Source: a virus (lineage: Duplodnaviria > Heunggongvirae > Uroviricota > Caudoviricetes). From it: a stretch of DNA of 37,934 nt. Positions 21,001-24,000 of the stretch are shown piece after piece (within the stretch, counting starts at the first letter, position 1; every line of letters starts with the position of its first letter). A program made the position numbers. The stretch lies in IMG/VR virus record IMGVR_UViG_2534682329_000010. One strand, written 5' to 3'.

Positions 21001-24000
21001 CCACCAGCGTCATACCTGCAGACATAAATGTGGTGGTACGTTTTGAAGCCAAGGAAAAACCATCGCCTTCGCCATCGATATCTTCAGGAAATCGGTCGTA
21101 ATCAGTCAGCGCCACACATTTAAAATCAGAGGATGACATGACATTGATGGAAGGCCAGCCGATTTTCAGAAAGCTGCCCGACAGAAAATATTTGTCATGA
21201 ACGTTGTTATCGTTACGGCGTGGGCTGAGGCGTTTTCTGACCTCCGGGCTGCAACGAAATGTTCTTGCCAGGCGCTTTTTGGAGTGCTCCTGCGCCTTAT
21301 CCTGTGTCATCTGCACCAGCAAAAAGTCAGACGGATCGCAGACAATGTTATAAACCACCCAGCCATCAATCAGGCCGTTAGTCTTGCCCGTACGGGCAGG
21401 ACCACCAAAAACAACCGCATCAAACTCACGGGACGACAGGCAGTTCATGGGGTCAATCACATACGGTGCAACCATCGGATCCCACGGAACAGAGTTGCCA
21501 CCAGATGTAGGGACTCGCATAAATTTTTGTACCGCTTCGGCAACAGGCATTCTGCGCGGCGCTTTAATTAACTGGCCCGTATCCAGTTTCAACGATCTGG
21601 CGGTCGCCTGCACAGGCATTATTCGTCCTCCTGATTTTCCTCCTCTGTATCTTCCTGTTTGCTGTCATCTGCCACCCGCCGCGCAATTTCGTCACGCAGA
21701 TCATCAATAATGCTTTGCACCCGCATGACAGCCGAAGGCTCAAGAGCGCAATCGCGTTCAAGAATATCGGGGAGGGTTTCCAGAACCTGCACCATAGCCT
21801 TTGCCATTTCAGCAAATTCACGGGCGACATCAGACGCAGGGATCAGTTCTCCGACCTCCTGTTCGAATTTCAGGCGCTCACGTTCTGACTGATACCAGGC
21901 TTTTCGGTCATGGGGATCCATTTCTCCTTCAGCGACAGGCGGTGGCAACTTCATTAATTCTGCCAGAATATCAGTAAGTTTATACAGCTTGAGGTTACTC
22001 TCATGCCCACCCGCTGTTCGGATATTTTTGATTCTTGATGCGACAGTCTGTCGGTGCACACCCGACAGCGCAGCTAACTGGCTGACATTAAGAACAAGGT
22101 GTTTCAATTCCTTATCCACTTACCCCTCCAGTGATGAACAAAAAATAAGCATTTTCGACACCAGCTATTTTTTAACCTTTCATTATCAACAAATTACAGT
22201 GGTGGTGATGAACGATGAAAATGCAAAAATTTGGCGATTTCTGCGCATCCGTATCCCCTCGGTATTCCAAATTCCCAGGAAGGACCCGTGAAAATGGGAG
22301 CAATTATCATTTGCACACACTCTAACACCTGCATTATCGCAGCCCCTCACACTGAAGGGCTGCTGTAATGCCTGTTACTCAGTAACAACTGCGCCTTCCG
22401 GTAATTTCATACAGGCAAATACCGGACAACCAGGATGACGATCATCTTCTGTTGCTTCCAGCATTGACTCACCAAACCACTCCGTCGTGGCGCGACCATC
22501 AGCTGCTTTGTAGTGGATCAACTACTGGTTTTCGCCATCCGCACACTGCGCGCGGGCTTTAACCTCACCCCATTCATCACTGATGCGCATCTCCACCAGT
22601 TGAGACGACTCAAACTTAAACGGAGCAGCATCAGCACCAATTACAATCAGTTTGTTTTCTGTTTTTTCCATCATCGCCTCCTGATATCGAAGCCCGTCTC
22701 CGCACCGGGCACTGATCAACATTTGAGTATTCGCGGAGACAGAAAGAATTTATTTTATTGAGTAGCCACAAACACAGAATTTCATGCTTTCCTGACGCTG
22801 ATGTATCCTTCATTTTTCAGCAAAATATTCTGCTCTTACAGGCAATCAGTTCTGCAGACACTGCCGAACACCGTCGACAATTTCACAGACCTGAGAAACT
22901 GTATCGAAAAGCTGGCGCGCCTTATCAAGGCTAACGCATCCCACCGATAAAAAAGGCACCAGTACCGCTACCAGTGCCCATTTCGCCGCCGTTCGCGACA
23001 TTCTGTGTGTCCAGTGTTTTCGGCTCATATCACCACCAACGCACAGCCCAAATCAGAACAGCGACCGCCACAAGGCGAATTGCAAAGGCCGCAGCCCTTG
23101 TCAAATCAAGGCTCGCGGGAGTTTCCACTTCAATACCTTTCATAATGGACAACCTCAAAAAGAATCTTTTATACTTTCCCACGAGGATTTTCTCCGTACT
23201 CACTACTCACAATTTCCTCTTTGACGTGAAAACTAAAAACCCCGGACTGTTCCAGCAGCCGGGGTTTTTGCTATCTGATGCTGTACCCCTTACTTTCGCT
23301 CATCGTAACCCCAGAAAAGAGCCTGAATGAGTTGAGGGTGTTCAGCACTTCAGCGTCAGTTTTTAAACTGCTACTCGCTCTTTCATCCAGCCGTAGACAA
23401 ACGACTCGTTGGCCTCGCGTTTTTCTGCCAGCTCCAGATAGCGGTCACCCTGCGTGCAATTCAGCGCCTTCAACATCACCAGTTCGCCGTCTTTGCCGCG
23501 TTTTTGCAGATAAGTCCGTAGTGCATTAATCGTGCGGGGGCCGATACGCCCGTCTGCGTCCATATCCGGGAACAATTTGCCTTGCAGGTTGAAAACGTTC
23601 AGCCAGCGTTGGAGCATTTTCGATGCCACGGACGGCCCCATATTCACGCCGGTATCACACAACTCTGCGGCAATATCAGGGGATAATGCGGCGACCTGGT
23701 CGAAACGTGGCCCGAACCAGTAATCCGCCTCGAGTATTTCCAGCGCCTGCCCGCGCGTCAGGTCACGCATATCGCCGCGATATCCGTGAGCGCGGGCGAC
23801 TTTTTCCGTAATACCCCATTTTGTCGCCCCGCCTTTATCGTCCGGATGATTGACGTAGCCGCCCTCTTTTCCGAGGATTTCATCAAAAATGACGTCCTTT
23901 GATTTCATCTCAGTGCCTCAACAATGGAAAGATTCTTGTGACGTTACCGCGCGCGCGTATCACCAGCACGCAGAACAGCAGATTAAAAAACACTTCCAGC

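Follow-up and report, generated by a model that had tools for sequence, protein, structure and literature searches.

What does an amber codon mean when it stands in the middle of an otherwise open frame in a natural prophage gene? The question is raised by a small gene on the minus strand of IMG/VR record IMGVR_UViG_2534682329_000010, a stretch of 37,934 nucleotides (nt) from a virus of the Caudoviricetes; the window, as used here, means this whole stretch. The open reading frame (ORF) begins with the Shine-Dalgarno sequence AGGAGG (22682..22677), a CG spacer and two adjoining ATG codons (22674..22672 and 22671..22669), reaches TAG at 22524..22522 after 50 codons counted from the first ATG or 49 from the second, and then stays open for 48 sense codons (22521..22378) up to a TAA at 22377..22375. 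The second ATG is the start chosen by the Prokaryotic Genome Annotation Pipeline (PGAP) and in most database entries, and residues are numbered below in the resulting 98-amino-acid frame.

An initial annotation had offered three readings of this arrangement, namely a recent nonsense mutation, suppressor-dependent expression and a regulated truncation. The start with AGGAGG and ATGATG, the 50 codons and the in-frame TAG can all be read directly on the minus strand as described there. From the ORF limits given, 22375-22672, the end at 22375 stands and the start moves to 22674 or 22671, and the continuation counted as 46 sense codons comprises 48. As set out below, the locus is very probably a nonsense pseudogene of the ordinary kind, derived from a small accessory late gene that belongs to the phiP27 L33 family (PHROG 1935) of lambdoid prophages.

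Homologues and the origin of the stop codon

Translated through the stop, the fused protein matches PHROG 1935, a family of unknown function, with an E-value of 1.6e-57 over residues 2-99. It retrieves 93 homologues (best E-value 1e-53) from E. coli, Shigella, Salmonella, Yersinia and Klebsiella, almost all of which span both halves. Uninterrupted homologues of ~98 or ~130 amino acids occur in E. coli, Salmonella, Yersinia, Klebsiella, Edwardsiella and other genera. The frame is likewise uninterrupted in eight of eight loci from other genera (Phytobacter, Edwardsiella, Yersinia, Pseudocitrobacter, Kluyvera and Izhakiella), and in IMG/VR, where a relative is encoded on 269 viral contigs, the best 80 of the 269 are full-length with one exception (L088). 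This is the comparison that the initial annotation had suggested. The relatives are full-length and uninterrupted, clearly not proteins of ~50 amino acids followed by an unconserved frame, the outcome that was to speak against an interrupted gene. An open run of 48 codons is not rare in itself, its chance being (61/64)^48 or ~0.1; the downstream frame is more than a chance run because it is nearly identical to the C-terminal half of the intact homologues.

The stop replaces a conserved sense codon through one base change, and past it the same frame continues with homology to the remainder of the intact protein, as in a nonsense pseudogene. Tyr50 is invariant in alignments of 25 and of 70 sequences spanning several genera. 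When 82 close loci are compared, with a DNA identity of at least 90%, TAC stands at codon 50 in 79 of them and TAG in the other 3. The same picture emerges from 5426 complete E. coli genomes, which were searched with a 41-mer centred on codon 50 such that a megablast match was possible only via an exact word spanning the codon: TAG was found in 2 (E10 and NY1601), TAC in 129 and TAT in 0. Since the TAT version is without a match, the ancestral codon was TAC, and the lesion is a single C>G transversion on the coding strand (TAC>TAG, window base 22522). The window copy resembles phiP27 L33 and PHROG 1935 over its full length and, like them, is placed after the lysis cassette and before the packaging genes in a lambdoid prophage. 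With its frame interrupted by TAG at codon 50, it is a pseudogene member of the family and not a functional one. Its status is in fact already known, as the identical 297 nt in E. coli E10 and NY1601 are annotated by PGAP in RefSeq as 'hypothetical protein, pseudo, internal stop'.

Variation also exists at the 3' end of the family. In about a quarter of the close homologues (L050-L069 and similar, e.g. L069:3001-3400) the last four codons, VVTE-stop, are swapped for a 35-amino-acid extension (…ELQPGEVFVMTDIIDGKPQYSRIEMNSKSARLIRE), which yields the ~130-amino-acid form; the switch point lies at the palindrome that overlaps the stop codon.

Constraint on the intact gene and fate of the product

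Purifying selection acts on the intact alleles both before and after codon 50, with a ratio of non-synonymous to synonymous polymorphism (pN/pS) of 0.31 for codons 1-49 and 0.12 for codons 51-93, so that the part cut off in the window is the more constrained one. AlphaFold, run on the 70-sequence alignment, predicts a small all-beta, SH3-like barrel with a mean confidence (predicted local distance difference test, pLDDT) of 86; the prediction obtained with 25 sequences was unusable (pLDDT 51). The predicted strands comprise residues 24-28, 34-42, 48-55, 61-67, 71-73 and 79-83, and residue 50 falls within the third. With the stop inside this strand, the 49-residue product would keep two strands only and could not form the predicted barrel, and the truncated peptide would most likely lack both stability and function. 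Searched with a profile, a set of 1.84 billion representative sequences yielded 657 relatives, mostly stand-alone proteins of 57-65 amino acids that match profile positions ~13-70; the core domain of the wider family, so defined, straddles the amber stop.

Other searches place the protein in no characterized family. Scans of the fused protein and its homologues with Pfam, NCBIfam and PADLOC gave no family, a profile search of PDB sequences gave only matches with E-values above 1 to the unrelated Hha, and in the BFVD viral fold library the similar entries are uncharacterised small phage proteins only. The predicted fold resembles the HspQ/YccV-like domain; homology to HspQ at the sequence level was rejected, with a hhalign probability of 1.6% and without a Pfam or NCBIfam match.

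The TAG haplotype differs from 42 intact alleles with the same leader by six private changes, at 22737 and 22699, in the Shine-Dalgarno sequence (AGGAGA in all 42, AGGAGG here), and as L22S, Y43C and Y50*. P8L is nearly private to it as well, private synonymous changes are absent, and sub-lineages carry a further V10E and F20L. L22S, Y43C and P8L hit invariant or near-invariant positions, and such replacements fit relaxed constraint. That four of four changes are non-synonymous corresponds to p ~0.06 against the family's own ratio, a value that rests on small numbers.

Age and spread of the amber allele

All 10 TAG loci that were retrieved are identical over the 297 nt and show at most one differing site between 22120 and 22890. 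The similarity extends far beyond the gene: the window and NY1601 share 99.8% identity over 8.5 kb of packaging and head module, and window positions 18522..26671 are 100% identical to AMSK01000001.1 from E. coli AD30 (assembly GCA_000304255.1). Homology to E10 and NY1601 breaks off at ~22898-22990. Upstream of this point the TAG loci split into two unrelated modules, one with a GH108 lysozyme and pertussis-like toxin genes, the other with an M15 endolysin and an Ais-like phosphatase. As the loci are identical or nearly so, we see in them one recent event; judging from these comparisons, TAG arose once, recently, and has travelled with one successful packaging module, which in turn has been recombined onto different modules for lysis and cargo. 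The recent nonsense mutation of the initial annotation is thereby borne out, given uninterrupted homologues of ~98 amino acids, the loss of an invariant tyrosine by one base and TAG copies that form one haplotype with almost no diversity.

The allele has been counted often. The exact 49-amino-acid product occurs on 123 contigs (NCBI, ENA and Logan) in 231 index blocks and the 50-amino-acid version on 15 contigs; for comparison, the commonest intact proteins are found on 673, 677, 230 and 218 contigs. In E10 (L002, NZ_CM143887.1) the prophage is a remnant: its large terminase gene breaks off after 651 nt, and P2-like genes for baseplate and tail fibre adjoin the cut.

Loss of the gene is not confined to this haplotype. 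Some related prophages have the same lysis cassette and 3' hairpin with the gene missing, others retain only its last 40 nt and the hairpin, and further alleles are broken by frameshifts or junctions. Absence of the gene and these other broken alleles indicate that loss is tolerated and recurrent, which is what an accessory cassette would lead one to expect and from which we infer that the gene is dispensable for the prophage.

Taken together, the following course of events can be proposed. The intact gene, between the lysis cassette and the terminase genes, encodes a protein of ~98 amino acids with a predicted SH3-like beta-barrel core. In one haplotype a single transversion turned the TAC of the invariant Tyr50 into TAG, so that ribosomes would stop after 49 residues and the last 48 codons would persist as an untranslated remnant. 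Of the protein, the disordered N-terminus and strands one and two of the barrel would be left. The allele may persist because the gene is dispensable, and may have spread by hitch-hiking on a young and successful packaging and head module (DUF1441 and GpA terminase), for which recombination with no fewer than two different modules for lysis and cargo is seen.

Several observations weigh against a simple pseudogene. The amber allele is not rare, accounting for ~5-8% of the occurrences counted for the gene, and its haplotype is joined to either of two different modules on the upstream side. The four coding changes that are private or nearly so all precede the stop, and the stronger Shine-Dalgarno sequence together with a compensated leader stem could be read as continued selection on expression. 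Basal read-through of UAG may also occur. Each of the haplotype patterns rests on very few mutations, and we treat the Shine-Dalgarno and leader changes as noise, so that a truncated or split product with a function keeps a small residual probability.

Alternative explanations

The alternative that survives best, improbable as we consider it, is that the truncation is functional, either because the 49-residue peptide has a role of its own or because a split protein is made by reinitiation at the TTG next to the stop (UAG-UUG). The initial annotation had described the continuation as lacking a start codon of its own. A TTG (22521..22519) does abut the TAG and is used by gene callers for a 48-amino-acid ORF, and both halves are listed as proteins by gene callers and in GenBank (EKJ84762.1 and EKJ84761.1); the description holds insofar as no Shine-Dalgarno sequence lies ahead. 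The same TTG, however, is Leu51 in every intact allele. The improved Shine-Dalgarno sequence, the kept leader stem and the fairly widespread haplotype would fit a functional product, but the N-terminal fragment has lost conserved residues (L22S and Y43C), the AlphaFold prediction places the break within one of the beta-strands of a small barrel rather than in a loop, and the spread is explained by linkage to the nearly clonal packaging module. A regulated truncation, as initially considered, is not supported: the stop is missing in 79 of the 82 close loci and in all more distant homologues and is thus no conserved feature of the gene.

Slightly less probable is that full-length protein is still made, through an amber suppressor tRNA of the host or of a co-resident phage or through a leaky UAG. 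The perfectly intact frame past the TAG, on which this explanation leans, is accounted for by the youth of the haplotype. A strong Shine-Dalgarno sequence also speaks for it, as does the fact that TAG ends no other called gene in the 13-gene neighbourhood and none of 28 long minus-strand ORFs. On the other side, ARAGORN finds no tRNA gene in the window, the stop is not conserved among homologues, supE would place glutamine at an invariant tyrosine, and the stop codon is followed by U. By E. coli termination contexts, UAG followed by U is not leaky.

The occurrence of suppressors among hosts is equally unfavourable. A 41-mer for the supE-type glnV(CUA) allele matched 157 of the 5426 genomes, and of the ~85 of these 157 matches listed every one but a single isolate is a laboratory derivative of K-12; neither E10 nor NY1601 appears in those ~85. 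The exception among the matches listed is ETEC1738 (H142, NZ_CP122768.1), a pig isolate of enterotoxigenic E. coli with 5.58 Mb. The supF-type allele was found in one laboratory strain. With a window free of tRNA genes and supE- and supF-type alleles almost confined to laboratory K-12 derivatives among the matches listed, the suppressor-dependent expression considered initially finds no support. Programmed read-through and amber reassignment are ruled out as properties of the gene because the stop is unconserved in homologues and TAG occurs in one haplotype only. The genes for the terminase (705 amino acids), the portal (503), a protease-capsid fusion (696) and other long products are uninterrupted under the standard code.

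Stop-codon usage can be recorded alongside. The 28 minus-strand ORFs of at least 150 codons end in TAA (15) or TGA (13) and in no case in TAG, and the sole TAG in the 13-gene neighbourhood is the amber codon itself. At the ~8% share of stop codons that is typical of TAG in E. coli, the chance of 0 in 28 is ~0.1.

Still less credible is that codons 50-52 (22516..22524) are a mutational hot spot or a contingency site at which the gene is repeatedly switched off. An independent E. coli allele on four contigs has a 1-nt deletion in codon 51, where the Dam site in TTGATC has lost its G, and in a Salmonella-type allele the frame shifts past Leu51. Together with the amber codon these make three events only, with further disruptions at about residues 38, 55, 57, 63, 85 and 91; there is no repeat tract at the site, and the codon-51 deletion allele is absent from the 5426 complete E. 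coli genomes. A fourth candidate lesion at codon 50, P0090, was discounted: here the gene runs into unrelated sequence, which we take to be lambda J-like phage tail-fibre coding sequence, on a 1.1-kb metagenome contig that is probably chimeric or carries a deletion. That the TAG haplotype is kept for a 49-residue or two-piece product useful to the lysogen, or that codons 50-52, next to the GATC site, act as a recurrent off-switch of a gene with a costly product, is together unlikely; the sole hints are the Shine-Dalgarno sequence, the leader stem, the two backbones and the two independent codon-51 frameshifts.

A sequencing or assembly error could be suspected from a one-base difference with a Dam GATC site 4 nt off, methylation sites such as GATC being prone to nanopore base-calling errors, but it is effectively refuted by the independent recurrence of the same haplotype, with its linked private substitutions, in AD30, two complete RefSeq genomes, an IMG/VR contig and over 100 assemblies from ENA and Logan.

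Architecture of the locus and its surroundings

The coordinates of the interrupted gene and the elements around it are collected in Table 1. Read along the minus strand, the locus leads from a TfpB-like gene through the B and A subunits of a pertussis-like toxin, two holins, a GH108 lysozyme, a 37-amino-acid ORF and a 51-amino-acid ORF to the interrupted gene, followed by the DUF1441 terminase small subunit, the GpA-type large subunit and the portal. The neighbourhood is the late region of a lambdoid prophage, and the position upstream of the terminase region that the initial annotation had assigned to the gene is confirmed by the two terminase matches. As in a moron-type cassette, the gene is present or absent among related phages with sharp homology boundaries, and the cassette is found ahead of at least three different packaging modules.

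Table 1. Features of the interrupted gene and its vicinity (window coordinates unless a locus is named).
Feature	Position	Strand	Remark
Whole pseudogene	22375..22671	-	98-codon phiP27 L33 (PHROG 1935) homologue, broken at codon 50; alternative start 22674
Shine-Dalgarno AGGAGG	22677..22682	-	final G (22677) private to the TAG haplotype
N-terminal fragment, 49 codons	22525..22671	-	sole part expected to be translated; carries L22S, Y43C, P8L
Amber codon TAG in place of Tyr50 (TAC)	22522..22524	-	altered base 22522: plus strand C here, G in intact alleles
C-terminal remnant, 48 codons, presumably untranslated	22378..22521	-	nearly identical to the C-terminal half of intact homologues; first codon TTG (Leu51)
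Original gene stop TAA	22375..22377	-	read from sequence
7-N1-7 palindrome TGTTACTCAGTAACA, overlapping the stop codon	22373..22387	.	perfect
3' stem-loop, 6 + 11 bp, directly past the stop codon	22331..22371	-	conserved
Leader stem, 22742..22732 pairing with 22704..22694	22694..22742	-	upstream of the Shine-Dalgarno sequence
Terminase small subunit (DUF1441, PHROG 141), downstream neighbour	21619..22119	-	family match
GpA-type terminase large subunit	21619..19502	-	family match
51-amino-acid ORF (PHROG 7528, phiP27 L32 homologue), upstream neighbour	22846..23001	-	conserved along with the interrupted gene
Codon 50-52 lesion loci in other alleles	L101:1501-1764, L102:470-733		

Two RNA structures flank the gene. 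A 96-nt stretch around the 3' stem-loop folds with -39 kcal/mol (z -4.3), and the stem-loop is kept in nearly all alleles of the 98-amino-acid form with a few wobble and compensatory changes. It is without a U-tract in the window, and homology between different phage backbones stops exactly at its foot; candidate roles are a terminator remnant, an RNA stabiliser or a recombination boundary. The leader stem of 11 bp is 94% paired across 24 distinct leaders and carries a compensatory G:C>U:A exchange in the TAG haplotype (22737 and 22699).

The perfect palindrome at the end of the frame, to which the initial annotation had drawn attention, is present and yet not distinctive: it is one of 8 perfect 7-N1-7 palindromes in the window and one of 25 when spacers of 0-3 are allowed. 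Its letters are those of the codons Val-Thr-Glu-stop, and the outer pairs differ among homologues. We therefore rejected it as a signal, given the 25 comparable ones, the coding sequence that imposes it and the unconserved outer pairs; it is probably incidental to the coding sequence.

No sigma-70-like site was found upstream of it on the minus strand, Rfam gave nothing in or beside it, and plus-strand ORFs overlapping the region belong to no PHROG family. A 'terminator-like' match at 22979..22954 was rejected, as it lies within the hydrophobic N-terminal coding part of the 51-amino-acid ORF. This ORF has a hydrophobic, lipoprotein-like N-terminus (…LVPFLSVGC…) and accompanies the gene as a conserved neighbour in phiP27, E. 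coli M8 and AD30. On the plus strand, 23169..23272 resembles sar RNA (RF00262) below threshold, at 23.3 bits where the gathering score is 43 (E-value 0.07).

The cargo upstream is a pair of pertussis-like AB5 toxin genes on the minus strand, with a Pertussis_S1-like A subunit at 25443..24706 and an S2S3-like B subunit at 25849..25436, preceded by the TfpB-like gene (26625..25912, minus strand). They stand just upstream of the holins, the position that stx has in Stx phages. Pertussis-like prophage toxins of E. coli and Salmonella have been described in the literature.

Implications for annotation

The AD30 'hypothetical proteins' of 49 and 48 amino acids are the halves of one broken gene, and a single-pseudogene annotation is due. 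Beyond correct annotation the lesion has little significance. The intact family deserves more attention, as a widespread and uncharacterised SH3-like phage protein with a strongly conserved core and hundreds of 50%-identity clusters, and the natural knock-out allele is usable as a ready-made control in studies of its function. Clusters at 90% identity that hold the 49-amino-acid fragment or the intact 98-amino-acid protein also contain unrelated proteins, thiolase-like ones of 383 amino acids and HNH endonuclease YajD-like ones of 116; these members are clustering artefacts and could mislead automated annotation.

Comparison with known systems

Among the closest counterparts of the locus are the copies in E10 (ACZJ07_RS20710) and NY1601 (ACXYXI_RS19755), which are 100% identical over the 297 nt and have the same TAG and the same downstream terminase small subunit. 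They differ upstream, where an M15 endolysin, a lysis protein and the Ais-like phosphatase stand in place of the GH108 lysozyme and the pertussis-like toxin genes of the window.

The named reference is L33 of the Stx2e phage phiP27 (P27p33, NP_543085.1), which shares 97% DNA identity with the window over the gene and its flanks. In both, the gene lies downstream of lysis genes and of an L32 homologue, upstream of packaging genes, and is followed by the same 3' stem-loop. In contrast to the window copy, phiP27 L33 is uninterrupted and has TAC (tyrosine) where the window reads TAG; it is annotated from an upstream ATG with 115 amino acids, and downstream follow an HNH endonuclease and an HK97-type terminase instead of DUF1441 and GpA.

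As to fold, the likeness is to HspQ/YccV (PDB 5ycq), and for the intact protein it concerns the predicted structure; HspQ/YccV is a small protein with an SH3-like beta-barrel, and its PDB entry describes it as a factor that enhances the specificity of Lon protease. As to the lesion, the window allele recalls the amber (sus) phage mutants of the laboratory, in which a phage gene is likewise interrupted by an in-frame TAG while the rest of its frame is intact, and which are expressed only in supE or supF hosts; unlike these, it is natural, sits in an apparently dispensable gene and comes in a window without a suppressor.

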